Positions 2-11,046 are shown, numbered from the stretch's first letter. The stretch: 11,046 nt of DNA from Candidatus Eiseniibacteriota bacterium (GCA_041483195.1 JBGPFC010000064.1:1-11046), one strand, 5' to 3'. Translations and numbers: made by a program. The notes: a model not told the origin generated them from the sequence alone.

Positions 2-511
2 ACGCTCAACAGCTTCGTGAGCACCAATCCGGTGTTCGCGGTGGATGAGTCGGGCTCGTTCACGCTGGCGCCGGGGGCGAGCCTCACGCTGCACGTGACG
101 TTCACGCCGCCGGCGGCCGGGACCTACACGGGCAAGCTTTACCTCAGGTCGGTGAGCGCGAGCGAGCTGATCGCGCAGGACGTCGAGCTCCGGGGCGTCA
201 CCGGCCCGCGACCTTACTCGGCGCCGCTCGCGGCGGAACGGGCGACGGGCCGGTTCGAGCTCCACGCGGGGACCCCGAACCCGGCGCGCGCGGCGACCAC
301 GATCGCGTTCGAGCTGCCGCGCGCCTCGAGGGTCACGCTCGAGGTGTTCGGGGTGGACGGCCGGATGCGGGAGCGGCTGCTCGACACGGTGCTGCCGGCG
401 GGGTCTCACGAGCGGATCTGGGCGCCGAAGGACGCGGCGAGCGGCGTCTACTTTTACCGACTCACCGCGGGGAGCCAGGTCGCGACGCGCAAGGTGGTGT
501 TCTTGAGGTAG
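2..511 (+). CDS. 3' end (5'-truncated) of a secreted protein: ASH/choice-of-anchor-D-like Ig domain followed by a T9SS type A / FlgD-Ig-like C-terminal sorting domain
   Basis: The frame is open from base 2 (TLNSFVSTNPVFAV...) to TAG at 509-511, so the GTG at 17 is probably internal. 'FTLAPGASLTLHVTFTPPAAGTYTGKL' fits the ASH/Ig pattern. 'PNPARAATTIAFELP...VTLEVFGVDGR...ASGVYFYRLTAG...TRKVVFLR' fits the typical PNP...SGVY...K C-terminal secretion tail. Confidence 0.85.
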   Translation, partial: TLNSFVSTNPVFAVDESGSFTLAPGASLTLHVTFTPPAAGTYTGKLYLRSVSASELIAQDVELRGVTGPRPYSAPLAAERATGRFELHAGTPNPARAATTIAFELPRASRVTLEVFGVDGRMRERLLDTVLPAGSHERIWAPKDAASGVYFYRLTAGSQVATRKVVFLR

Positions 512-538: not shown

Positions 539-1894
539 CTACGCGCCCGCCGGCTCGCCGCTCACGCGCCGGTGCTCGCGCGCGATCAGCGCCACGATCG
601 CGAGCCACGCGATCACCAGCACGATGTTCACGCCCGCCACGCTCGATGGCGCGAGCCGGAGCGACGTCACCGCCAGCACCACGCCCGCCGACAGCACGTC
701 GCCCGCGCGCACGAAGAACGTGTCGATCGCGGCCTTGGCCTTGTACTTCGCCTCGCGGGTGGTGGGCAGGAACAGCGCCTGGCGCGTGGTGTTCTGGAGC
801 GAGTAGTCGGTGGCGTTCTCGAGAATCTTCACGCCGCGGATGACCCCGATCACCGGTGTCAGCGCCAGCACCGCGTAGCCGCCGAGCGCGATGACCGGCA
901 GCACGAACAGCGCGGCGCGCACGCCGAACCACTTGAGCACGCGCGACACCACGAACAGCTGCACCAGCGCGCTCACCACGTTCACCCACGTGAAGAAGCC
1001 AGCGTAGAACTGCCCGATGAAGCGCTCCTTGAATTCCGCGGAGGACGTCGTGCCCAGGTGTCCGGCCGCGATCATGCGGTCGGCGCCGAGCGCGAGCGTC
1101 TTGCCCAGGATGTACTCGCCGTTGGTGTTCACCACGTTCAGCACCAGCATCAGCAGCGCGATCAGCAGCAGGTAGCGGTCGCTCATCACCAGCCGGAATC
1201 CGCCGACGCTCTCGAGCGGCGCGTCGGCCGCGACCGTGTGTCCGGCCGCGCCATGCGCCGCGTGCTCGCGCGCGCTTACCACGCGCGAGAGCGCAGCGGC
1301 GAGCGCGAGCAGCGCGGCGGCGACCAGCATCGGGGTGTACGTGCCGAACGCGCCGATCAGGGGCCTGGCGATCCACGCGCCAACGATCGCGCCCAGGCTC
1401 GAGCCGAACGCCACGACCGCGAACAGCCGCTTGCCCTGCTCCGGGGTGTACACGTCGTTCGCGAACGACCAGAACTGGGCGACGATCATGAGGTTGAAGA
1501 TTCCGACCCACAGGAAGAACGCAACGCCGAGATGCTGCACCTTCATCTGCCCGAGCAGCCAGAAGACGGCGAGGTGGCTGATGAAGAACAGCGTCACCCA
1601 GCTGATCAGCTTCGCGCGGCCCACGCGGCTCGCGAACGCGCCGTAGGCCGGCACCAGCACCACCAGCAGCGCGGCCATCCCGGCGGAGGCGTAGCTCTTC
1701 ACCTCCGCGCCTTCGCCGCCGAGAATCAGCGCCTCGCGCAGCGGCTTGAGGATGTAGTAGCTCGTGAGCAGCAGGAACACGTCGAGCATCAGCAGCAGCG
1801 CGGTGAGCCCCTCGCCCGGCCGAACCTCGGCGAACGGCGCGAGCATGCGGTCCAGCGCCGTCCGGCGCGCGACCCGCGGGTGAATCTCGCTCAC
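539..1894 (-). CDS. TLC/NTT (Npt1/Npt2) family nucleotide translocase, MFS-like, about 451 aa
   Basis: C-terminal part of ORF 539..2665. The GTG at 1892-1894 overlaps the upstream TGA (GTGA). About 12 hydrophobic segments. Family-like motifs: YYILKPLREALIL, QFWSFANDVYTPEQGKRLF, NTNGEY, DYSLQNTTRQALFLP, KYKAKAAIDTFFVRAGD. Confidence 0.9.
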   Translation of the reverse strand: MSEIHPRVARRTALDRMLAPFAEVRPGEGLTALLLMLDVFLLLTSYYILKPLREALILGGEGAEVKSYASAGMAALLVVLVPAYGAFASRVGRAKLISWVTLFFISHLAVFWLLGQMKVQHLGVAFFLWVGIFNLMIVAQFWSFANDVYTPEQGKRLFAVVAFGSSLGAIVGAWIARPLIGAFGTYTPMLVAAALLALAAALSRVVSAREHAAHGAAGHTVAADAPLESVGGFRLVMSDRYLLLIALLMLVLNVVNTNGEYILGKTLALGADRMIAAGHLGTTSSAEFKERFIGQFYAGFFTWVNVVSALVQLFVVSRVLKWFGVRAALFVLPVIALGGYAVLALTPVIGVIRGVKILENATDYSLQNTTRQALFLPTTREAKYKAKAAIDTFFVRAGDVLSAGVVLAVTSLRLAPSSVAGVNIVLVIAWLAIVALIAREHRRVSGEPAGA

Positions 1895-3213
1895 GGCGCC
1901 TGCGGCGGGTGCGCGAGATCGATGCGGTCGAGCGGCGAGGCGCGGCCGCCGCTGCGCACGCGATACGCCTGCATCGTGAGCGCGCCATCCGGCGCGCCCG
2001 CGGGAGGGAGCGCCAGCCGGCAGAAGTTGTACACCGATTTCGAGAACACGGACGACGGCACGATGCCGATGCCCGGAGGCAGCGGCTTCGCCAGCTCGAT
2101 GTCGCGGATCCTGGGATCGAGCACGTAGAGCGGCGCGCCGCCCCCGGCGGCGGTGATGTGCCAGAACCCGCCGCCGTTCGCGCCGCGCACGAACACGCGC
2201 TGATACAGGTGCTCGTGCCCGGTGAACGCCGCCGTGACGCCGCGCGCGACGAACATCTCGAGCAGCCGCTCGCGCCGCTTCGCCGCGGGATCCTCCGGCC
2301 GATGGCTGTCCCACGCGTTGCGATAGTGGCCGGCCGAGATCAACGGGTGATGGAAGACGACGAACTTCCAGCGGGCGGGGAGCGCGAGCACCGAGTCGGC
2401 CCACGCGAGCTGCGCCTCCGCGAGGTCCGCCGCCGCGCCGCGATGCGTGTCGCGCAGCGCGTTGGAGTCGAGCACCACGATGCGGGCGTCGCAGTCGGGC
2501 AGGTCGAGCGCGAACCAGTAGCGCCCGGGCTCGGCCGGCGCGCCCATCGTCGCGTCCCAGTTGGCGCGGGCGAGCGAATCCGCGGTGCGCTCGTGGTTGC
2601 CGGGGGTGGCGACGAACAGCGTGCGCGCGCGGAGCGCCTCGTGACGGTCGACGAAGCGCCGCCACAGCCCGCCGCGCCGCCCGTCGGTGACCAGATCGCC
2701 GTTCGACACCACGAGATCGGCGGGCAGCTGCCGCTCGAGCGCGCGCAGCACGCTGGTCTCCGCGCCGCCGGTGGGCGCCTTGCTCCAGTGCGCGATGATG
2801 TCGCGGGGAATGTCGAGGTTCGGAACGATGCCGACCACCAGGAACACCGGAATGGCGGCGAGCCCGCGCGCGAGCTTGATCGGGTGCTTGAACGACATCC
2901 GCTTCACCGCCCGCATCAATCGCGAGTGCGCCTGCAGGCGCATGCCCGCGCGGTTGTCGCCGTAGATGAGCACGACCGTGCTGTCGGCGCCGTGGGCTGC
3001 GGCGCGTGCGCCCATGCGGTGGTGCGCGGCGTCGGTCGAGCCGGGCGCGAGCCGCGCGTCGCCGCCGGGCTCGAACGCGGTGACCGCGCCGGGCACCGGC
3101 GCCGCGCCGCGATAGGCGGCGATCGGCGCGCAGCCCGCGAGCGCGGCGACCAGGACGGCCGCAAGCGCCGGCGCTAGCGCGGCGCGGCGGACCGGCTCCG
3201 TGACGCGCGTCAT
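1891..3213 (-). CDS. Lipoprotein calcineurin-like metallophosphoesterase (purple acid phosphatase-like), about 440 aa
   Basis: ATG at 3211-3213 overlaps the upstream TGA (ATGA). The N-terminus MTRVTEPVRRAALAPALAAVLVAALAGC ends in a lipobox (LAGC). All five metallophosphoesterase motifs are in order: YGDNR, NGDLVTDG, PGNHE, VFHHP, FTGHEHLYQR. Confidence 0.9.
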   Translation of the reverse strand: MTRVTEPVRRAALAPALAAVLVAALAGCAPIAAYRGAAPVPGAVTAFEPGGDARLAPGSTDAAHHRMGARAAAHGADSTVVLIYGDNRAGMRLQAHSRLMRAVKRMSFKHPIKLARGLAAIPVFLVVGIVPNLDIPRDIIAHWSKAPTGGAETSVLRALERQLPADLVVSNGDLVTDGRRGGLWRRFVDRHEALRARTLFVATPGNHERTADSLARANWDATMGAPAEPGRYWFALDLPDCDARIVVLDSNALRDTHRGAAADLAEAQLAWADSVLALPARWKFVVFHHPLISAGHYRNAWDSHRPEDPAAKRRERLLEMFVARGVTAAFTGHEHLYQRVFVRGANGGGFWHITAAGGGAPLYVLDPRIRDIELAKPLPPGIGIVPSSVFSKSVYNFCRLALPPAGAPDGALTMQAYRVRSGGRASPLDRIDLAHPPQAP

Positions 3214-4529
3214 GGCGTCACCGCGTCGCGAGCGTCGCCCAGCCAGCGGCGCGCGATCGCGTCGCGCCGCGCGATCAGAACCTTCGCCAGGTAATCGGCC
3301 GAGCGCGGATCGGAATACCTTCCGCGCGCGATCGCGGCGCGAACGATGTCGTCCGAGAACGCCGCCACGATGCGCGCGCCCCACCGCACGTCCCGCTCGG
3401 TGCGCTCGTCGAAGGCGGGGTTGGGGTAATCCGGGCGCCAACCTTCCGGGTCGAAGGCGCTCGCCTCGATGAAGCCGACGCTCGTCAGGTGCGGGTCCAC
3501 GATCCTCTCCCATGGGAACGGCACGAGCCCCAGCGTAAGGAGCGAGCGCGCCATGACGCCGTAATCCACGAAGTACTCGTTGCCCGTCATGTACGACTTG
3601 CTCGCGATCGAGCCGGCGCCCAGGCAGCCGTTGAAGTCGATCAGGTAATGGCGCACGAACCGGCGGCCGCCCTCGTCCACCCACACGTCGAGCGAGTTGG
3701 GCCCGCGCACGTCGGCGTGGTTGGTCCACGCCGCGATCGTCCACAGCCCGCGCAGCTCGCGGCGCAGCTGGTGGGGGATCAGGTCCTCCGGGTCGTCGCG
3801 CCTGCGCCCGCGAAACTCGCGGGGGCCGAGCGGCTTGCCGCGAATCAGCCGGCTCACGAGCACGCGATAGCTTCCATCCGGCTCGCGAGCGGCCTTCTTC
3901 AGCAGGCGCGCGACGTCCTCGCGCGTCATCGCGCGCTTGCGCCCGAGCGCGTCGGTGAGCTTCGCGCTGGGGGAGACGTCCAGGCTCTCGGGGCGGAAGA
4001 ACGCGATCGCGTCGTCCGGCACGTTGTAGCCCGCCGCCCAGAACAGGTAGCAGGACACGATGTCGGCGCTGGTCGCCATCTCGAGGTCGTCCGGCTCGTC
4101 GAACTTGACGATGAATCGCGCGCCTTCCGCGTCCTGGATGAAGAAGCCGGGCGTGACGCCCTGGGTCTTCGCGCGCGTCACCGTCCAGCGGCCGGGCGCG
4201 GGGCCCGAGCCCGGGCCGGGTCCGCGCAGCATCTGCTCGACCGTCACCTCGCGAAATCCCAGCCGTGGCTGCCACCAGGTGCTCGGGAGCCGCACCCGAT
4301 CGCTCGAATCCACGTTCGCCGCCTCGCGCGGCCGGCGCGCGAGCTTGCGGATCCCGAGCGCCGGATCGAAGAGCCGCGTGACCGGGCGCACGAAGCTGTT
4401 GTCGAACAGGTCGTAGTAGTACGAGATCTCCGTGGCCTCGGGCTCCGGCGGGGCGGCAAGCGTGGCGGCATGCGCCGCCACCGGCGCGAGCGCGATCAGC
4501 GCGGCGCGCGCCGCGGCGCGCGCCCTCAC
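3210..4529 (-). CDS. Exported protein with an atypical kinase-like fold (HipA/PI3K-PI4K-like), about 439 aa
   Basis: GTG at 4527-4529 has GGAGG 6 nt upstream and overlaps the previous stop. Sec-type signal MRARAAARAALIALAPVAAHA. Ordered kinase-like motifs: QGVTPG (Gly loop), FIVKFD (beta3 Lys, codon 4104-4106), EMATSADIVSCYLFWAAGYNVP (alphaC region), HADVRGPN (catalytic loop, DVRGPN at 3696-3713), YLIDFNG (DFG-like, IDF at 3633-3641), C-terminal YLAKVLIARRDAI helix. The CDS is secure; the kinase call is motif-based. Confidence 0.75.
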   Translation of the reverse strand: MRARAAARAALIALAPVAAHAATLAAPPEPEATEISYYYDLFDNSFVRPVTRLFDPALGIRKLARRPREAANVDSSDRVRLPSTWWQPRLGFREVTVEQMLRGPGPGSGPAPGRWTVTRAKTQGVTPGFFIQDAEGARFIVKFDEPDDLEMATSADIVSCYLFWAAGYNVPDDAIAFFRPESLDVSPSAKLTDALGRKRAMTREDVARLLKKAAREPDGSYRVLVSRLIRGKPLGPREFRGRRRDDPEDLIPHQLRRELRGLWTIAAWTNHADVRGPNSLDVWVDEGGRRFVRHYLIDFNGCLGAGSIASKSYMTGNEYFVDYGVMARSLLTLGLVPFPWERIVDPHLTSVGFIEASAFDPEGWRPDYPNPAFDERTERDVRWGARIVAAFSDDIVRAAIARGRYSDPRSADYLAKVLIARRDAIARRWLGDARDAVTP

Positions 4530-5908
4530 TCGACGCCTCCGAGCGTGTACTGGATCCGCAGCGCCTCGGCGCTCCAGTCCACGCCGATCGCGCCCAGCGG
4601 CGCGGCCTTCGAGCGCGGCCGCAACGCGACGCCGTACGAGCCCTTCAGGGTGTCGAGCCGCGCGTCGTGCTGGAGATCGGGGTAGACGCCGCCCGCCTCC
4701 GCGTGAGCTTCGAACTCGAAGCTCTTCGCGAGCGGGAAGATGTACGAGAGCTTGACCACCATCGCGTCGAGGTCGTGAAAGCGATGCGGCTCGAAGCCGG
4801 CGAGCCCTTCGGATCCGCCGAGCCGCGCGAGGTCGGGGAGCGGGAGCACGCGCCCCTCGCGGGGCGATGGCTCGGTGTCCACCGCCTTGAACCTCACTCG
4901 CAGCGTGCGCGGGTCGCGCATGAACGAAATGCCCGCCTCTGCATCGAGCGTGTAACGGTTGAACGAGTTGGCACTCTGAGCCGGCTTCGAGCCGTGGTAG
5001 GGCCCGAACGCACCGAGGGTGAAGTCGGCGTCGATGCGCTCGGCGCTGAACGCGGCGCGCGCTCCGTGCGTCCAGTGCGGCGCGCCGCCGCGCAGGTCGA
5101 CCGCGGCCCGCGCGCCGCTCACGACTTGCGCGAAGGACCGGTCGCGCTGGCGGGTCCTGGGGAATTCGACGTCGGTCGATGGCGACGCGCTGTCGTGTCC
5201 GCGGCGCGTCACCAGCGCGCGCTCTTCGAGCCACATCGACAGCTGTCCCCGCGGGCTGCCCCCCGCGAGTTTCACAGGAACCGCGAGCGCGAATCGCGCG
5301 GTCTGACTCTGCCACGCGTAGTCGCTCGCGCTCGAGTGCGCGGACTGGAGCCCGGTGCCGTAGAAGCGATCCTGCGGCCGCCACTCGCTCCGATACCCGA
5401 GCGAGAGCGGGCCGCCCGCAAGCGCGGCCTGCACCACTCCATATCCGCGCGTGCTGCCTTCCATCAGCAGCGTGAGCGGCCGCGCGGGCAGCGGCGGCCG
5501 GTAGCCGAGCTTCGCGCCGATTCCGGTGCGATCGCCGAGGCTCGCGGGCAGGATCGCGATCCCCGCGCGCGGGAGCTCGGCGAACACGAACAGCGCGCGC
5601 GGGATCAGCGACTGCTGCTCGGCGCGGAGCATCCCGTTGCGCGTGAGCCAGCCCAGCCCCGAGAGCGGAAGCGACACGATCCGGCCGGGCAGGCGCACCA
5701 CGGTCTCCCACGGCTCGGCCGCCGGGATCGCGCGCGGAGGGTTCCACGGTGGGGCGGTGGTGGGGCCGAGATCGTCCGGGCCGCCGTTCGCGGGCGCGGC
5801 GGAGGCGGTGTCCATCGGCGCGCCCTGCGCGCGCGCGGCCGCCGCGCCGAGCGATAGCCCGAACAACGCCAGCAGGATGGGAGCGACGGGGCCTGGGGGG
5901 CGGAACAT
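4526..5908 (-). CDS. Omp85/BamA-TamA-like outer-membrane beta-barrel protein without recognisable POTRA domains, about 460 aa
   Basis: ATG at 5906-5908 starts a signal peptide (MFRPPGPVAPILLALFGLSLGAAAARA/QG). Many alternating amphipathic beta-strands. 'RFYGTG' and 'LARLGGSEGLAGFEPHRFHD' resemble the Omp85 LGG..LRG(F/Y)...RF loop-6 motif. It ends with 'EAGGVY...SYGVALR...IGVDWS..ALRIQYTLG' terminal strands. Confidence 0.75.
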   Translation of the reverse strand: MFRPPGPVAPILLALFGLSLGAAAARAQGAPMDTASAAPANGGPDDLGPTTAPPWNPPRAIPAAEPWETVVRLPGRIVSLPLSGLGWLTRNGMLRAEQQSLIPRALFVFAELPRAGIAILPASLGDRTGIGAKLGYRPPLPARPLTLLMEGSTRGYGVVQAALAGGPLSLGYRSEWRPQDRFYGTGLQSAHSSASDYAWQSQTARFALAVPVKLAGGSPRGQLSMWLEERALVTRRGHDSASPSTDVEFPRTRQRDRSFAQVVSGARAAVDLRGGAPHWTHGARAAFSAERIDADFTLGAFGPYHGSKPAQSANSFNRYTLDAEAGISFMRDPRTLRVRFKAVDTEPSPREGRVLPLPDLARLGGSEGLAGFEPHRFHDLDAMVVKLSYIFPLAKSFEFEAHAEAGGVYPDLQHDARLDTLKGSYGVALRPRSKAAPLGAIGVDWSAEALRIQYTLGGVE

Positions 5909-5920
5909 GGCAGGTTCGCG

Positions 5921-5949
5921 ACGATTCCATGAAGCCCGCGGCAAGTCAA
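5921..5949 (-). promoter_or_regulatory. Candidate sigma70-type promoter for the minus-strand four-gene operon
   Basis: The minus strand reads TTGACT (5949-5944), 17 nt, then AATCGT (5926-5921), preceded by TGG (extended -10-like). This implies a very short leader before ATG 5908, consistent with the lack of a Shine-Dalgarno. Confidence 0.4.
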
Positions 5950-5977
5950 CGCCGGATCCACTTGCGGGTCCGGCGTT
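5948..5977. repeat. 12-bp imperfect inverted repeat in the divergent intergenic region (possible operator)
   Basis: AACGCCGGATCC (5948-5959), ACTTGC, GGGTCCGGCGTT (5966-5977): 11 of 12 positions Watson-Crick complementary, the other a G.T. Confidence 0.7.
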
Positions 5978-5990
5978 CGCCCGCTAGCGT
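5962..5990 (+). promoter_or_regulatory. Candidate sigma70-type promoter for the NTT-HEAT/cNMP operon
   Basis: TTGCGG (5962-5967), 17 nt, TAGCGT (5985-5990), ending 25 nt upstream of ATG 6016. Confidence 0.45.
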
Positions 5991-6015
5991 CCCGGGCTCC
6001 ACCCGGGGCCCCCTG

Positions 6016-8733
6016 ATGTTCGAACGCATCGCGTCTCACCTGAAGCTCGAGCCCGCCGAGTTGAGGCGCGCGATTTTGCTCGGCCTCACGCTGTCCACGC
6101 TGACGGGCTCCTACACGCTGGTGAAGACCGCGCGCGACGCGCTGTTCCTCGCGCGCATGCCGGCCACCACGCTACCGTACGTATTCCTCGGGGTCGGAGC
6201 GCTCACGCTCGCGGCGGCCTCGCTGTTCGCGCGCGCGACGCGCAACCGCGCGACCCACGAGACGCTGGCGGCGGGATCGCTCGCGGCCGCGGTGTCGCTC
6301 GCGGCGTTCGCGCTGCTGTTCCGAATCCACGCGAGCTGGGTGGCGATCGCGTTCTACCTGTGGGTGAACGTCTACGGCCTCCTGCTTTTCTCCCAGTTCT
6401 GGATCTACACCAACAGCATGAGCCATCCGCGCGAGGCGAAGCGCATCTTCGGCATCGTCGGCGTGGGAGGGATCCTGGGCGGCCTCACGGGGGGATTGCT
6501 CGCCGCGCCGCTCGCGCATGGGTTCGGAGTCACGTCGATGCTGCTGGCGGCGTCGATCCTCCTCGCGCTGGTGGCGCCCCGCGTCTACCTGGGCATGCGG
6601 CACGGCGTGCTGCCCCGGCCCGAGCCGGTGGCGGACGAGGCGACGCCGCCCCAGCACCCGCTTCACCACCGCTACGTGCGCTGGCTCGCGCTCGCCGCGC
6701 TGTGCTCGGTGATCGTCACCGGGCTGCTCGACTATCAGTTCAAGGTCGAGATCCAGCGCCGCTTCCCATCGGGCGCGGACCTGGCCTCGTTCCTCGGCCT
6801 GTTCTACACCGCGATCAACCTCGCGGCGCTCGTCGTGCAGCTGTTCGCGACGCGCTGGGCGCTGCAGGTGCTGGGCGCGGGGTGGTCGGCCGCGGTGCTC
6901 CCGGGCGGGCTCGGGCTGGGCGCCGCGATCACCATGCTGGTGCCGGGCTTCGGCGCGGTGCTGGGCTCGCGACTCTGGGACCAGGTCATGCGCCAGTCCA
7001 TCAATCGCTCATCGGTCGAGCTGTTCTACATTCCACTCGAGCCCGGGCTGCGGCGGCGCGCGCGCTCATCGATCGAGGCCGGGCTCGAGCGCGTGGGCGA
7101 CGGCCTCGCCGGCCTCCTGATCCTCGCGGCGGGCGCCGCGATGGGCGCCGGCACCTTCACGCTCGCGGCGCTGATCGCGGCGGTGGTGGTGGTGTGGATC
7201 GTCGCGTGGATGCAGGTGCGCCGCGGGTACGTCACCGAGCTGGGCCGCAATCTGCGCCGAATGAATCTCCAATCGCACCACGAGCCGGTTTCGCTGCGCG
7301 AGGCGAGCATGCTGCGCGAGATGGCGCGGCTGCTCGACAGTCCGTACGAGCGGGTGCTGATTCACGGCATGACGCTGCTGGAGGAGAACGCGCCAGACAC
7401 GCTGGCGGAGCGCGTGCCGAGCCTGCTCGCGCATCCGCGGCCGGCGGTGCGCGCGCGCGCGCTCGCGGCCGTGGCGGCGCACGGGCTGCAGGGACTCGCC
7501 GCGGAGGTGAACGCGCTGGTGACCGACCCCGATCCCGACGTGCGCATCGCGGCGCTGCGCGCGCACTGCACGCTCGGGTGCGACGATCCCGCCGGGCGCA
7601 TCGAGGAATTTCTCGCGGCGGAGGACCCGCGCCTGCGTCACGCGGCGATCCAGCTCGCTGTGGAGTTCGCGCCGGCGGGCGAGGAGCTGAAGGTGAAGGC
7701 CGTGCTCGAGAACCTGATGCGCGACGGGTCGTCCGCGGAGCGGACGGCGGTCGCCGAGGCGCTGGGGCGCCGCGCGCCGCCGAGCGTGCTGCACGATCTG
7801 CTCTCGCCGCTCCTGCGCGACGCCGACCTCGAGACCCGCTGCGCCGCGCTGCGCAGCGCGGGCCGCGCGCAACGCCGCAATCACATTCCGGCGCTGATCG
7901 AGGCGATCGGCGCGCGCCCCACCCAGCGTGCCGCCCGCCACGGGCTGGCCGGGTTCGGCGATCGCGTGGTCGGAACGCTCGGCGACTACCTGAGCGATTC
8001 GAGCGTTGCCACCGAGATCCGCCAGCGACTGCCCTACGTGCTGGGCGACATCGCGAGCCAGGAATCGCTCGCGGCGCTGCTCCGCTGCCGCGAGACCGGG
8101 GACGTGCGGCTCTGGTACCGCGTGCTCAAGGCGCAGAATCGGATGCGCGCGGCCGGCGCGCGCGTCGAGTTCCCGCGCGCGCGGGTGACCGAGGACCTGG
8201 AGCGCGACGTGCGCAGCTACCTGTTCGCGTACGTCCACTACCGCGCGTGCCCGCTCGGCGAGAAGCGCAGCGCCGAGCGATTGTTCTGCATCGCGCTCAA
8301 CGAGCGCCTCGACCAGTCGCTCAATCGCGTGTTCCGGCGTCTCGCGCTGCTCTACCGGCCGGAGAACATGCTGGCCGCCTACCAGGGCACGGTGTCGGAC
8401 CAGCCCCGGCTGCGCGGCAACGCGGTCGAGTATCTCGAGAACGCGCTCGCGCCGGACCACCGCGCGCTGGTGCTCCCGCTGGTCGCGGACGGCGGCGATC
8501 AGGCGCGGCTCGCCTTCGCGGAGGTGCGCTTCGGAATCCGCTTCACCACCTTCAACGATTCGCTCGAGGCGATCCTCGCCGGGGAGGATCAGTGGCTCCG
8601 CACCTGCGCGTTGTTCGTGGTCGGCGCGCGCAAGGAGCGCGCGCTGGCGGCGCAGGTCAAGGCCGCGGCCTCCGCGCTCGATCTGCGCGTGCGCGAGACC
8701 GCTCTCTGGGCCAGCCTCGCGATGGAGATCTGA
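6016..8733 (+). CDS. TLC/NTT-family transporter fused to C-terminal HEAT repeats, about 905 aa
   Basis: ATG 6016 (MFERIASHLKLEPAELRR) chosen because earlier starts overlap the Omp85 gene or the promoter region. The N-terminal ~410 aa has about 12 TM segments with NTT motifs YTLVKTARDALFL, SQFWIYTNSMSHPREAKRIFGIVGVGGILGG, LLDYQFK, ELFYIPL and IEAGLERVGDG. It is followed by HEAT-like repeats (LLAHPRPAVRARAL, LVTDPDPDVRIAAL, LLRDADLETRCAAL, RLRGNAVEYLEN, DQWLRTCAL, DLRVRETA). Confidence 0.9.
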   Translation: MFERIASHLKLEPAELRRAILLGLTLSTLTGSYTLVKTARDALFLARMPATTLPYVFLGVGALTLAAASLFARATRNRATHETLAAGSLAAAVSLAAFALLFRIHASWVAIAFYLWVNVYGLLLFSQFWIYTNSMSHPREAKRIFGIVGVGGILGGLTGGLLAAPLAHGFGVTSMLLAASILLALVAPRVYLGMRHGVLPRPEPVADEATPPQHPLHHRYVRWLALAALCSVIVTGLLDYQFKVEIQRRFPSGADLASFLGLFYTAINLAALVVQLFATRWALQVLGAGWSAAVLPGGLGLGAAITMLVPGFGAVLGSRLWDQVMRQSINRSSVELFYIPLEPGLRRRARSSIEAGLERVGDGLAGLLILAAGAAMGAGTFTLAALIAAVVVVWIVAWMQVRRGYVTELGRNLRRMNLQSHHEPVSLREASMLREMARLLDSPYERVLIHGMTLLEENAPDTLAERVPSLLAHPRPAVRARALAAVAAHGLQGLAAEVNALVTDPDPDVRIAALRAHCTLGCDDPAGRIEEFLAAEDPRLRHAAIQLAVEFAPAGEELKVKAVLENLMRDGSSAERTAVAEALGRRAPPSVLHDLLSPLLRDADLETRCAALRSAGRAQRRNHIPALIEAIGARPTQRAARHGLAGFGDRVVGTLGDYLSDSSVATEIRQRLPYVLGDIASQESLAALLRCRETGDVRLWYRVLKAQNRMRAAGARVEFPRARVTEDLERDVRSYLFAYVHYRACPLGEKRSAERLFCIALNERLDQSLNRVFRRLALLYRPENMLAAYQGTVSDQPRLRGNAVEYLENALAPDHRALVLPLVADGGDQARLAFAEVRFGIRFTTFNDSLEAILAGEDQWLRTCALFVVGARKERALAAQVKAAASALDLRVRETALWASLAMEI

Positions 8734-8735
8734 CC

Positions 8736-9272
8736 GTGGACGAGACCCTGACGCTCATCGAGAAGACGGCGTTTCTCAAGGGCATGGACGTGCTCGCGAG
8801 CGTACCGACCGAGGCGCTCGCCCAGCTCGCGGCGCGCGCGCGCGAGTTCCATCACGAGGCGGGCGACGTCGTGTTCGCGCAGGGCGAGGCCAATCGCGGC
8901 GCGTTCGTGATCGTCGAGGGGCTGGTCGAGCTGCGACGCGGGCGGGCGCTGGTGCGCATGTTGCGCGACGGCGACGCGTTCGGCGAGGTGTTCTCGAACG
9001 AGGGCGATCCGCACGAGTATTCGGGCATCGCATCGACCCACGCCCACGTCCTGAACGTGACGCTCGCGGAGATGTGGGACGCGATGCTCGACTTCCCGGA
9101 GTTCGCGGTGGGCATGGTGCGCTCGGTGTCGCGCCGAAATCACGAGCTCACCACGCGGCTGCTCGAGCTGGAGGGCCTGCTCGAGCGTTTCCACGCTGCG
9201 CTGAAGCAGGCCGGGATCGATCCGCCCGCGCCGCCGGTGGGCGAGTTGGCGCCTACCACGGTGAAGTTGTAG
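8736..9272 (+). CDS. Stand-alone cyclic nucleotide-binding (cNMP/Crp-type) domain protein, about 178 aa, with no HTH
   Basis: GTG at 8736, 2 nt after the upstream TGA, with GGAG at 8724-8727. Motifs LIEKTAFLKGMDVL, GDVVFAQGE, FVIVEGLV, GDAFGE. It ends in a C-terminal helix/coiled coil (RRNHELTTRLLELEGLLERF) and a Pro-rich tail. Confidence 0.88.
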   Translation: MDETLTLIEKTAFLKGMDVLASVPTEALAQLAARAREFHHEAGDVVFAQGEANRGAFVIVEGLVELRRGRALVRMLRDGDAFGEVFSNEGDPHEYSGIASTHAHVLNVTLAEMWDAMLDFPEFAVGMVRSVSRRNHELTTRLLELEGLLERFHAALKQAGIDPPAPPVGELAPTTVKL

Positions 9273-9438
9273 GGCGGGCGACGAGATCGCCGCTATCGGG
9301 AATCATCAGGATCAGAGGCTGGCGCCGAATGTGCGCACCCCTAATATGCGCCGAGGGGGGTCGATTTGAGGGCGCAGTTGTCGTTGATCTGCAATCGGTT
9401 GCGGGGTTCTAAGAGCTCCGGGCATGAGCAAAAATCAT

Positions 9439-9467
9439 TTGACCGCCAGCGCAGATCGTTGCATGTT
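9439..9467 (+). promoter_or_regulatory. Candidate sigma70-type promoter
   Basis: TTGACC (9439-9444), 17 nt, CATGTT (9462-9467), preceded by the A/T-rich tract AAAAATCAT (UP-element-like), which is unusual in this GC-rich window. Confidence 0.4.
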
Positions 9468-9739
9468 CTTGGCCCCATCTGGGCCGCACTAGCCATGTTC
9501 GGACGAGGAGAATTGCCTGCCAGGGACGGGAGCGCCGAGGCCGTTCGATTCCACGAGCGACCCCTCGGGCGAACTCGTCCACTAAGGTTCGTGTGGATCG
9601 GGTGCGTGCATCATGGGGGAAATTCGCAATCATCGTCTCTGTGCCTCGTTCAGTTGCGCCGTGGCTGGATGTGCAGCGAATCGAATGAGCTGGACTGCGA
9701 GATGATGAGACACGACCGAGTCCACATCGGAGCGCCGCA

Positions 9740-10483
9740 TTGGCAATCGAGGTCTGGTGTTGGCCGTTCGAGGAAAGAATTCGCCGGTGGTGCGGCAATG
9801 CGGGGCACGCCGGCATCCGGATCGGCCAGACCGTCTACGACTTTCACCCGGCGCGTCACGATGGCGCGAATGTTCCTGTGAAGAGCTACCAGGATGAGGT
9901 TCCGAGGCTGACGATGAGCATGGCACGAGTCCTCGAAAAAAATCCCCTAGATCCAGAGTTGAATAAGCTGATCATGCGTGGATGCGTCTTGGATCGCACT
10001 CAGCGGGACGTCGCAAACGAGATGGCCGTCCAGTTCGATGTCTACGCACAGTGTCTGCAGAATCATGTTCAATTCGACAAGAACACGGGTGTATTTAAGG
10101 AGGGTCTCTACGGCGTACTCCCGAAGCTCCACGCATACCGCGTCGAGGCCGATGTGGCGGCGGAGCAGCGGCTCACCGCTTTCATCATGACCGAACAACG
10201 ACGAGTGCCCGATTACCACATTGCGCGGCACAATTGCACTCACTTCGTCCGCCGGTCGCTCGCCGTCAGCCTGATCAAGGTCCTGGACGGGGACGGTTGG
10301 CAGCCGCGCGGGGATCACCCCGGCAATTGGCGCCCGGACAAGTTTGATGCTCTCCTCCAAGAGCACTTCGGCCCCCCGAAGGAAGTGGCCCTCGCGTTGG
10401 AATTCCAAGAGGGTACCCGCCGGGCAGGGGGCAACAGCTTCTACTGGAAGGAACTCTCACCAATTTCTGAGTTCGCCGGTTGA
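9740..10483 (+). CDS. Circularly permuted papain-like (PPPDE/LRAT/permuted NlpC-P60-type) cysteine hydrolase, 247 aa
   Basis: TTG start with GGAG (9729-9732) 7 nt upstream. N-terminal His strand 'GHAGIRIGQTVYDF' and later 'YHIARHNCTHFVRRSL' (the Y.....NC..F pattern) give the His-before-Cys order of permuted papain folds. No signal peptide. Confidence 0.7.
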   Translation: MAIEVWCWPFEERIRRWCGNAGHAGIRIGQTVYDFHPARHDGANVPVKSYQDEVPRLTMSMARVLEKNPLDPELNKLIMRGCVLDRTQRDVANEMAVQFDVYAQCLQNHVQFDKNTGVFKEGLYGVLPKLHAYRVEADVAAEQRLTAFIMTEQRRVPDYHIARHNCTHFVRRSLAVSLIKVLDGDGWQPRGDHPGNWRPDKFDALLQEHFGPPKEVALALEFQEGTRRAGGNSFYWKELSPISEFAG

Positions 10484-10508
10484 TGCAACAATGCAGGGAG
10501 GGAGAAAG

Positions 10509-10892
10509 ATGGCGCGTCACAAGCCGGCTGTAGGCGAGATCACAATCGACAAGCGGTGGCTGGAGGGGGGAAATGTCACCCTCAAGACCGTCACCATCAG
10601 TGATCGGGCTCAGATCGCTGAAATCTGCGATGTGCTCGAGGTGGGCGAAGAGGTCGTCTATCACGTCCAGCGCCCGGACACGCCCACTTACACGGTGATG
10701 GAGTTGGGTGTGGGGGGCCGGAAGGTGCGGGAGACCAGAATCATCGGCGGGGAACTGATCCTTCGCGGGGACGCCTGGTATATTCCCAGCACCCCTCGGC
10801 TCCGAGCCGTCTTGGACAAGGTCTTGCGTCGCGCGTCCGAGACGAAGCTGCACCTAGCGACCAAGATGCGGGAGCTTCGCGCCACCCACTGA
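10509..10892 (+). CDS. Hypothetical protein, 127 aa
   Basis: ATG 10509 follows a strong Shine-Dalgarno (GGAGGGAG) and lies 25 nt after the preceding stop. Globular-looking composition (MARHKPAVGEITIDKRWLE...). No family recognised. Confidence 0.7.
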   Translation: MARHKPAVGEITIDKRWLEGGNVTLKTVTISDRAQIAEICDVLEVGEEVVYHVQRPDTPTYTVMELGVGGRKVRETRIIGGELILRGDAWYIPSTPRLRAVLDKVLRRASETKLHLATKMRELRATH

Positions 10893-10906
10893 CTACCGGG
10901 GTGTGG

Positions 10907-10925
10907 CTAGGAGCCTGTCCGAGTA
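10907..10925. mobile_element. Possible terminal inverted repeat of an IS or MITE next to a CTAG target
   Basis: CTAG followed by GAGCCTGTCCGAGTA resembles, from memory, ends of IS5/IS1182-type elements and derived MITEs. No transposase or partner end is visible in the window. Confidence 0.35.
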
Positions 10926-11046
10926 TTCGCAACGTCGGCGCGCATGATCCGAGATCCTGGGTGGTGCGCGTCGATCGTCGTTTCGGCCGGCCTGCGAAGG
11001 GATCCGCGACGCCCTCGGCGGCGGTCGACCTCGCCCCGGGCCACGG

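Follow-up and report, generated by a model that had tools for sequence, protein, structure and literature searches.

Can a kinase work in a compartment that is held to contain no ATP? The periplasm and the outer membrane are taught as ATP-free, and the known outer-membrane processes draw their energy through TonB, Tol or trans-envelope bridges. The question is raised by six adjacent genes of Candidatus Eiseniibacteriota bacterium, a free-living bacterium of soil or sediment with a genome of 4.17 Mb (97% complete). They lie on a contig (GCA_041483195.1 JBGPFC010000064.1:1-11046) that we analysed over its whole 11,046 bases, hereafter the window, and they encode an Omp85-like outer-membrane barrel, a kinase-like protein with a signal peptide, a lipoprotein metallophosphoesterase (MPE), a carrier of the TLC/NTT family (NTT1), a second such carrier fused to HEAT repeats (NTT-HEAT) and a protein with a cyclic nucleotide monophosphate (cNMP)-binding domain (cNBD). 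An earlier note, made from the sequence of the window alone, had read these genes as an extracytoplasmic phosphorylation system in which the carriers send out ATP for the kinase. We find that the kinase-like gene is paired with the barrel gene in many lineages, and that the phosphatase and the carriers form a co-varying accessory module found at about half of the loci.

The exported kinase-like protein and its barrel

By sequence, the kinase-like protein belongs to no named family: it has no Pfam or NCBIfam match even at E<=10 and no match in the Protein Data Bank (PDB) by sequence or profile. The Pfam models of HipA_C, PI3_PI4_kinase and Fam20C do not match it, its ESM scores to these families are low (0.82-0.84), and none of 18 relatives scanned matches a kinase Pfam family. 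The 30 nearest ESM-Atlas clusters have no Pfam family in common, one being auto-named "putative Secreted protein". A phmmer search of 1.84 billion representatives (50% identity) returned 2618 relatives at E<=1e-3, of which 734 reach E<=1e-30; most are of ~560 aa, with a C-terminal region of ~120 residues beyond what the window protein has. One relative (P0390, 808 aa) is a fusion, its kinase-like domain being followed at the C-terminus by Peptidase_S51 (5e-10).

Structure prediction gave the kinase fold that had been claimed for this protein. An AlphaFold2 (AF2) model from the single sequence was discarded (predicted local distance difference test, pLDDT, 36.5), and the model from a 143-sequence alignment reached a pLDDT of 94.8 and a predicted TM-score (pTM) of 0.92. 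When this model was compared with 48,161 PDB representatives using VIA-align, 14 chains of the whole search scored Z>=8, and the ten top-ranked rows (Z 10.4-13.7), together with most of the 50 rows listed, were kinase or kinase-like chains. CtkA came first (Z 13.7, root-mean-square deviation (rmsd) 3.9 Å over 220 aligned residues), followed by Fam20C (Z 12.4, rmsd 4.2 Å, 256 aligned), Hydra Fam20 (Z 12.3), PI4KIIα (Z 12.3, rmsd 21.7 Å; a second entry at Z 12.0), CotH (Z 12.1) and actin-fragmin kinase (Z 11.7), with HipA and HipT (Z 10.4) and MavQ (Z 10.3) also listed. Lipid and glycan kinases scored level with protein kinases in this search, and Foldseek agreed in placing kinases at the top.

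Four residues, K142, D273, N278 and D298, are at least 90% conserved among the 143 sequences. In the model and alignment K142 ends the third strand, D273 and N278 stand in NHxDxRxxN, and D298 stands in IDF[GN]; we take NHxDxRxxN and IDFG to resemble the catalytic and Mg-binding loops of HipA and PI3-4K. The four positions agree with the strands and loops that the model shows, with catalytic roles given by motif reasoning rather than by superposition, and the whole fits a putatively intact enzyme. An N-terminal hydrophobic segment is present in 141 of the 143 relatives by a hydropathy heuristic, in line with the export supposed earlier; the two that lack it look N-terminally truncated, and 54 of the 143 have a lipobox-like motif. 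The kinase-like protein is also the most conserved of the cluster, at 59-67% identity in seven of eight Eisenbacteria-type loci (L002-L009) and 53% in L009. We conclude that it is very probably an exported atypical kinase fold of an unnamed family.

The neighbourhood of this gene was examined at 79 kinase-homologue loci, taken from the best 80 of 597 confirmed matches. They come from at least eight lineages, among them Eisenbacteria, Acidobacteriota, Ignavibacteria, Marinimicrobia, Krumholzibacteriia, Calditrichaceae, Zixibacteria, KSB1, Latescibacterota and Cytophagia. Labels of metagenome-assembled genomes (MAGs) in this set indicate that Bryobacter, Paludibaculum and 'Ca. Solibacter' lineages may carry the cluster. 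The most constant neighbour is the barrel gene. Using the window barrel as a tblastn query, a match lies directly upstream of the kinase in 46 of the 79 loci; with an iterated local hidden Markov model (HMM), a barrel domain on the same strand ends <=700 nt upstream in 76, and in the other three the barrel overlaps the kinase start (two loci) or upstream DNA is missing (one).

The window barrel itself has no Pfam or NCBIfam match even at E<=10, DUF5982 included, and PDB sequence and profile searches gave no usable match. Its assignment comes from its relatives: 5 of 38 barrel relatives, picked from 120 listed with all ten long ones deliberately included, match PF01103 (best 7.7e-10), and by ESM features it scores 0.98 against clusters with an Omp85 domain in 73-81% of their members. 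The open reading frame (ORF) directly upstream of the kinase was scanned at 16 loci and matches PF01103 at 11 of them (down to 1.7e-25); the other five comprise two ORFs without a match, one PAP2-containing long ORF and two failures of a crude ORF caller. No POTRA domain was found in the window barrel, in which only ~100 residues precede the barrel region, or in the barrels directly upstream of the kinase at the loci scanned. These features point to a divergent, POTRA-less member of the Omp85 superfamily. Its N-terminus holds a conserved motif (residues ~47-107) in which P54, W55, W67 and E68 are invariant. One locus (L077) has a separate second Omp85 gene further upstream, and that one does carry a POTRA domain.

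Complex prediction also joins the two proteins. With barrel residues 29-460, kinase residues 22-439 and user-made alignments as inputs, for which calibration is only approximate, the score was 0.72 (runs 0.74, 0.72 and 0.67) against 0.01 for the best control; scores of that level are reached by 116 of 157 solved complexes and by 2 of 215 mismatched pairs. The runs share at least 70% of contacts, with a pLDDT of at least 84 for the partners, and since neither protein has a PDB sequence relative, recall of a solved complex by the model is an unlikely source of the score. On the kinase, the predicted interface covers family-specific motifs around S83/W85 and D246-H253; on the barrel it covers the motif at 47-107 and residues 330-334, 389-401 and 434, which we infer, by strand count from the C-terminus, to lie in periplasmic turns. 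Two relatives (P0393, P0395) are natural fusions in which an Omp85 barrel follows the kinase; as this runs counter to the order of the genes, they are not read-through artefacts. Long ORFs in three genomes (G093, G131, G153) were considered as further barrel-kinase fusions and rejected as crude ORF-caller artefacts or C-terminal extensions. The modelling thus indicates that the kinase probably docks on the periplasmic face of the barrel. The earlier note had the barrel export, display or feed the enzyme or its substrate; the predicted docking on the periplasmic face favours a partner of the kinase over an export channel.

Carriers and phosphatases around the pair

Local HMMs place a TLC gene within 10 kb of the kinase at 39 of the 79 loci, 32 of these within 3 kb. 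The same distance takes in an MPE gene at 30 loci, a PAP2 gene at 13, one or other of these phosphatases at 38, and a cNBD gene at 13. Phosphatase and carrier go together: MPE or PAP2 is present at 30 of 39 TLC-positive loci versus 8 of 40 loci without TLC. At 25 loci the nearest TLC gene lies downstream on the same strand; at eight it is upstream and divergent, and at six upstream on the same strand, suggesting that the linkage persists through rearrangement. An ignavibacterial locus (L010) has Omp85, kinase, MPE, TLC, TLC-HEAT and cNBD genes in a single direction; a zixibacterial one (L034) has a histidine kinase and a PAP2 gene additionally upstream, with its MPE seen by tblastn only; and a third (L060) reads Omp85, kinase, TLC-HEAT, cNBD and PAS histidine kinase. 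On one 81-kb contig, two paralogous barrel-kinase clusters (L002, L004) are separated by ~20 kb, and a divergent NTT-HEAT-cNBD pair accompanies each of them, which points to duplication of the whole module.

In the host genome the kinase-like gene is single-copy, and the sole TLC-family genes are the two that flank it in the window; a TLC search of control genomes found none positive (0 of 14). Since the only two TLC genes flank one kinase gene and several phyla show the arrangement again, the grouping far exceeds what chance would give, and chance co-location was ruled out as an explanation. In five genomes with a TLC-less kinase locus, TLC genes are present elsewhere in all five, in two of them (G003, G004) beside a second kinase copy. 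Among 201 evenly drawn Acidobacteriota genomes, with the kinase called at E<=1e-20, 40 have the kinase and 74 have TLC. TLC is found in 35 of the 40 kinase-positive and 39 of the 161 kinase-negative genomes (odds ratio 21.9, Fisher p 1.6e-13); the sample includes one unpublished genome (G054), without which the counts are 34/39 and 39/161. Of the sampled genomes, 18 have a full-length NTT1 orthologue (at least 43% identity), and 13 of these are kinase-positive. The conserved co-occurrence of kinase, barrel, carrier and phosphatase genes that the earlier note had expected is therefore seen at the locus level and, for kinase and TLC, at the genome level.

The note's description of the window as six genes in two divergent, tightly packed operons is likewise borne out, by the ORFs, by Pfam for four genes, by the fold model and by the Omp85-matching relatives (Table 1; coordinates set by ORF listing and start-codon context). 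All three gene junctions of the minus-strand operon are 4-nt overlaps (GTGA/ATGA), and the cNBD gene starts 2 nt past the NTT-HEAT stop. NTT1 begins either at a GTG at 1894, overlapping the upstream stop, or else at an ATG at 1846. The sequence itself shows the signal peptides and the MPE lipobox. A sigma-70-like consensus, which is uninformative for this phylum, was not found in the divergent spacer; the window contains no tRNA or Rfam family by our scan, and its two terminator-like sites are below the number given by shuffled sequence.

Table 1. The divergent cluster in the window, with positions counted from the first base of the contig
Feature	Position	Strand	Description
NTT1, TLC/NTT-family carrier	539-1894	minus	~435-451 aa; PF03219
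Lipoprotein calcineurin-like metallophosphoesterase (MPE)	1891-3213	minus	440 aa; lipobox LAGC; PF00149
Kinase-like protein, unnamed family	3210-4529	minus	439 aa; signal peptide ending AHA/A (cleavage at the stroke)
Omp85-like barrel	4526-5908	minus	460 aa; signal peptide; POTRA-less (noNterm type)
Divergent spacer	5909-6015	none	107 nt; presumed shared regulatory region
NTT-HEAT fusion	6016-8733	plus	905 aa; PF03219 + HEAT_2
Stand-alone cNMP-binding protein (cNBD)	8736-9272	plus	178 aa; PF00027

Both carriers score above the Pfam cutoff of 21 bits for PF03219, NTT1 at 57.9 bits (1.1e-15; also MFS_1 at 2.5e-8) and NTT-HEAT at 47.1 bits (2e-12; also HEAT_2 at 9.9e-19), and the match to NCBIfam TIGR00769 is far below its cutoff. 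A crude hydropathy scan gives 12 hydrophobic segments for NTT1 and 10 for NTT-HEAT; those of the fusion lie solely at residues 50-399, within a carrier domain of ~1-400 that is followed by a cytoplasmic HEAT-repeat domain. NTT1 is a distant match (3.6e-8) to a solved 'ADP,ATP carrier protein 1' (9j3n; another solved carrier is 9j3j), and the cNBD protein matches cNMP_binding (PF00027) at 9.1e-12. An NTT-HEAT fusion with a downstream cNBD gene has already been described, and cNMP-dependent tuning of its transport, there for import, proposed, in passages of Major et al. (2017; PMC5381601). The window fits that published definition, with its TLC domain, C-terminal HEAT repeats and cNBD gene 2 nt on, and the order NTT-HEAT then cNBD is repeated in L010, L034 and L060. 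Hanks-type Ser/Thr kinase genes adjoin long TLC or MFS-HEAT carrier genes, and several clusters have genes for sensor histidine kinases (7TMR-DISM, PAS, CHASE2) beside them; flanking regulators of one or other type are at L045:5598-7187, L078:15021-16637, L034:5180-7345, L060:8059-9672 and L078:5450-7285. Kinase-type regulators in these places suggest regulatory input to the clusters.

The window MPE matches Metallophos (PF00149) at 6.5e-11 (43.5 bits against a cutoff of 21.5), has a weak, below-cutoff NCBIfam match to the cAMP phosphodiesterase CpdA and has no PDB sequence match. Its translation contains GDxx, GDLV, GNHE and GHEH, which we take to be the metal-binding motifs of the calcineurin-like family, and a second strongly hydrophobic segment (residues 112-130, Kyte-Doolittle (KD) value 2.06) beyond the lipobox signal peptide. 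Elsewhere PAP2 takes this slot, and two unrelated phosphatase families in the same position argue for phosphoryl chemistry. In three independent kinase-PAP2 fusions, a segment of ~200 residues with a long low-complexity stretch leads to a C-terminal PAP2 domain; as PAP2 active sites face the periplasm, these fusions speak for the kinase staying there. Among the 120 barrel relatives listed, ten are long ORFs that carry PAP2 at the N-terminus. In these (P0312, P0363 and eight others; for example L005:7791-9959) PAP2 is followed by a signal-peptide-like segment ending in AxA and then by the Omp85-like barrel. They are not counted as proven fusions because the internal signal-peptide-like segment leaves room for two products: they may be one cleaved precursor, or two proteins made from internal starts. 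At two loci from syntenic genomes in which TLC was not detected (L084 in G093 and L085 in G153), a DUF1501 gene (2.4e-136; locus positions ~10.5-12 kb) follows the barrel-kinase pair; DUF1501 presumably belongs to the alkaline-phosphatase-like superfamily and would be a third phosphoesterase-like type of neighbour.

The cluster leaves both ends of the window to other sequence. Positions 2-511 (plus strand) hold the 3' end of a gene encoding an Ig-like domain followed by a type IX secretion system (T9SS) type-A C-terminal sorting domain (TIGR04183, 8.8e-9; Por_Secre_tail), and because of this domain the host appears to use type IX secretion. GC content is 71-74% across the cluster and ~60% beyond position 9300. 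The fall from ~72% to ~60% within 9273-11046 may mark foreign or fast-evolving DNA at the contig end, and a 247-aa ORF there (9740-10483, plus strand) matches no Pfam or NCBIfam family.

A candidate phosphoryl-transfer module and its rivals

What could such a cluster do? We propose that it is a conserved envelope phosphoryl-transfer module, and give the whole chain, ATP export included, a probability of roughly 0.4. The kinase would act at the outer membrane, on its periplasmic side, with a protein, lipid or glycan of the envelope as substrate; it would be docked through the conserved N-terminal motif of the barrel and its periplasmic turns, and it would need a nucleoside triphosphate (NTP) in that compartment. 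The TLC/NTT carriers would serve as antiporters, passing cytoplasmic ATP out and taking ADP (or AMP/Pi) in. The phosphatase would reverse the phospho-mark or clear nucleotide products, and the cytoplasmic HEAT domain and the cNMP-binding protein would throttle the second carrier. That the carriers export ATP is the conjecture that suits the findings best; the functional link of the kinase to the carriers and phosphatases, taken by itself, is likely.

Several points weigh against the ATP-export module. TLC went undetected in 5 of the 40 kinase-positive Acidobacteriota genomes (G034, G050, G093, G131, G153) with three queries, namely the Pfam model, NTT1 and the NTT-HEAT carrier domain, and in at least two of them, G093 and G153, the contigs are of multi-megabase length; the kinase thus does not strictly need a TLC carrier. 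Conversely, the frequency of TLC/NTT-HEAT in genomes without the kinase (39 of 161) implies that the carriers have other roles, and among the matches listed, kinase and TLC are within 10 kb of each other in at least 6 of the 35 Acidobacteriota genomes that have both. No correction for shared ancestry enters the genome-level statistic, the 79 loci were taken as the best matches to the query alignment and so are biased to close relatives rather than random, and the export call comes from the hydropathy heuristic, not SignalP. The similarity of the carriers to characterised NTTs is distant (36 bits to the solved carrier), and ATP in the periplasm could leak through porins. The interpretation first given to the cluster therefore stands in part: fold, export and co-occurrence support it, and strict dependence on TLC does not hold.

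The same evidence can be read in other ways. The kinase-fold protein may be an NTP-driven ATPase or a nucleotidyl-transferase (RIO/Bud32- or SelO-like) that would use carrier-supplied ATP to power or regulate the work of the barrel at the outer membrane, for example insertion, secretion or the handling of lipids. Such a motor would suit the pairing at 76 of 79 loci, the predicted docking and the natural kinase-Omp85 fusions; RIO-type and Bud32-type chains do occur among the fold matches (Z 6-7), and the TLC link would be accounted for just as in the phosphoryl-transfer module. The strongest fold matches (Z 10-14), however, are bona fide phosphotransferases, and two unrelated phosphatase families suit a reversible phospho-mark better than a motor, so that we hold this explanation to be unlikely. 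Scavenging of nucleotides or organic phosphates, in which the MPE trims external substrates, the TLC carriers bring nucleotides in as they do in energy parasites, and capture or processing of substrate is aided by the barrel and the kinase-like protein, accords with the weak CpdA likeness of the MPE, with the way the phosphatase tracks TLC (30/39 versus 8/40 loci), with the phosphoesterase-type genes (DUF1501, Phosphodiest) near the pair in TLC-less genomes, and with a statement in Major et al. (2017; PMC5381601) that all characterised NTTs are importers. It gives no role to a conserved and apparently intact kinase, the protein under strongest conservation in the cluster, and a periplasmic kinase would still require a phosphate donor; moreover, the PAP2 partners indicate lipid phosphates rather than nucleotides, and Omp85 barrels are not generally known as solute channels. 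We think scavenging improbable.

Two further explanations remain. One takes barrel and kinase as a type V-like secretion pair, in which the Omp85 barrel exports the kinase to the surface or medium, as in PlpD and two-partner secretion, to act on other cells, with the carriers and phosphatase as functionally separate neighbours. The kinase-Omp85 fusions do resemble a passenger-barrel layout, and the kinase that matches the fold best, CtkA, is itself secreted. Yet POTRA domains are absent from the window barrel and the kinase-adjacent barrels of the scanned loci, the predicted interface lies in the N-terminal extension and the inferred periplasmic turns, the kinase of the PAP2 fusions would be held at the inner membrane, and the TLC association at both genome and locus level would be left unexplained; secretion seems very unlikely on these grounds. 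The other is an ATP-free lipid-phosphate cycle of the periplasm, run by the kinase-fold enzyme with PAP2 or MPE on a lipid-pyrophosphate donor, as LpxT does, and directed at lipid A, undecaprenyl phosphate or another outer-membrane lipid, the carriers moving cargo other than ATP. PAP2 genes fused or adjacent to kinase or barrel speak for this cycle, as do the lipid kinases PI4KIIα (Z 12.3) and MavQ (Z 10.3) among the top fold matches and the five kinase genomes in which TLC was undetected. Set against it are the fold relatives co-crystallised with nucleotide, which by their entry titles carry ATP, ADP, AMP or AMP-PNP, the conservation of residues at the expected nucleotide- and Mg-binding Lys and DFG-type Asp positions, and again a TLC association that would stay unexplained. 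We give the cycle little credence.

Relation to known systems

The closest working analogy for the phosphoryl-transfer module may be found in eukaryotes, where secretory-pathway kinases (Fam20C and relatives) are supplied with ATP by the ATP/ADP exchanger SLC35B1/AXER of the endoplasmic reticulum (ER) and Golgi. The likeness consists of an atypical kinase with a signal peptide, a non-cytosolic compartment and, putatively in the present case, antiporter-delivered ATP. The eukaryotic carrier is however unrelated to TLC, and the window kinase differs from Fam20C in having no match to its Pfam model (ESM 0.84) and in pairing with an outer-membrane barrel. Among the other fold relatives, CtkA of H. 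pylori, CotH of the Bacillus spore coat, and HipA and HipT share the fold class (Z 13.7, 12.1 and 10.4). Unlike them, the window family has no Pfam or PDB sequence match, is exported and barrel-linked, and has extra motifs (PSTWW and DDPxDxIPHxxRRELRGL) in the predicted barrel interface. LpxT is a periplasmic phosphotransferase that requires no ATP, and with it and PAP2 enzymes the system would share phosphoryl chemistry on envelope lipids at the periplasmic face, relatives having PAP2 fused or adjacent to kinase or barrel; in contrast, the window has no PAP2 gene, and a metallophosphoesterase takes the slot.

The carriers are akin to Rickettsia Tlc1, Chlamydia Npt1 and plastid NTT1 in that both pass the Pfam TLC gathering score. 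They differ in belonging to a free-living host (4.2 Mb), in matching distantly and mostly in the C-terminal part, and in the proposed direction of ATP transport, which would run opposite to that of energy parasites. The architecture and gene order of NTT-HEAT and cNBD are identical to those in Major, Embley and Williams (2017; PMC5381601), whose passages on HEAT, cyclic nucleotides and fusions mention no kinase, Omp85 or phosphatase neighbour, no search having been aimed at those terms. The recurrent linkage of NTT-HEAT-cNBD to the kinase-barrel pair appears to be new. Omp85 proteins of the noNterm type were reportedly described by Heinz and Lithgow in 2014; the window barrel differs from them in giving no match to DUF5982 or any other Pfam family and in having its own conserved N-terminal motif. 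In parts of a paper on Leptospira paralogues (PMC11358297), POTRA-less Omp85 proteins figure as a recognised class of unknown function that is common in environmental diderms, and the word 'kinase' has no occurrence in that paper. No description of the cluster, or of a periplasmic kinase with an NTT or Omp85 partner, was found in the literature covered, most subscription journals being outside that coverage. We rate the system as a whole as categorically new, with parts drawn from known superfamilies.

For the ATP-dependent reactions that older work placed in the periplasm no source of ATP is known, as a passage in PMC4289276 relates, and the cluster offers concrete candidates both for such a source (the two TLC carriers) and for a consumer (the exported kinase). 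It also bears on the role of TLC carriers in free-living bacteria, posed as an open question since 2017 (PMC5381601), and suggests a function for one class of POTRA-less Omp85 barrels. The broader proposal, that some free-living diderms supply their periplasm with ATP through a reverse-running TLC carrier feeding a kinase or ATPase docked on a POTRA-less Omp85 barrel, together with a phosphatase and cNMP-gated flux, is put forward tentatively, and we consider it more likely wrong than right. If true, it would be a bacterial counterpart of the arrangement of ER/Golgi ATP exchanger and Fam20C, and an exception to the rule that no ATP-driven chemistry takes place at the outer membrane. Even if ATP export should prove wrong, a large exported kinase family that has no Pfam model (2618 representatives) would remain, and with it, in the kinase-barrel pair, a new envelope machine that spans Acidobacteriota, Eisenbacteria, Zixibacteria, Ignavibacteria, Latescibacterota and others.

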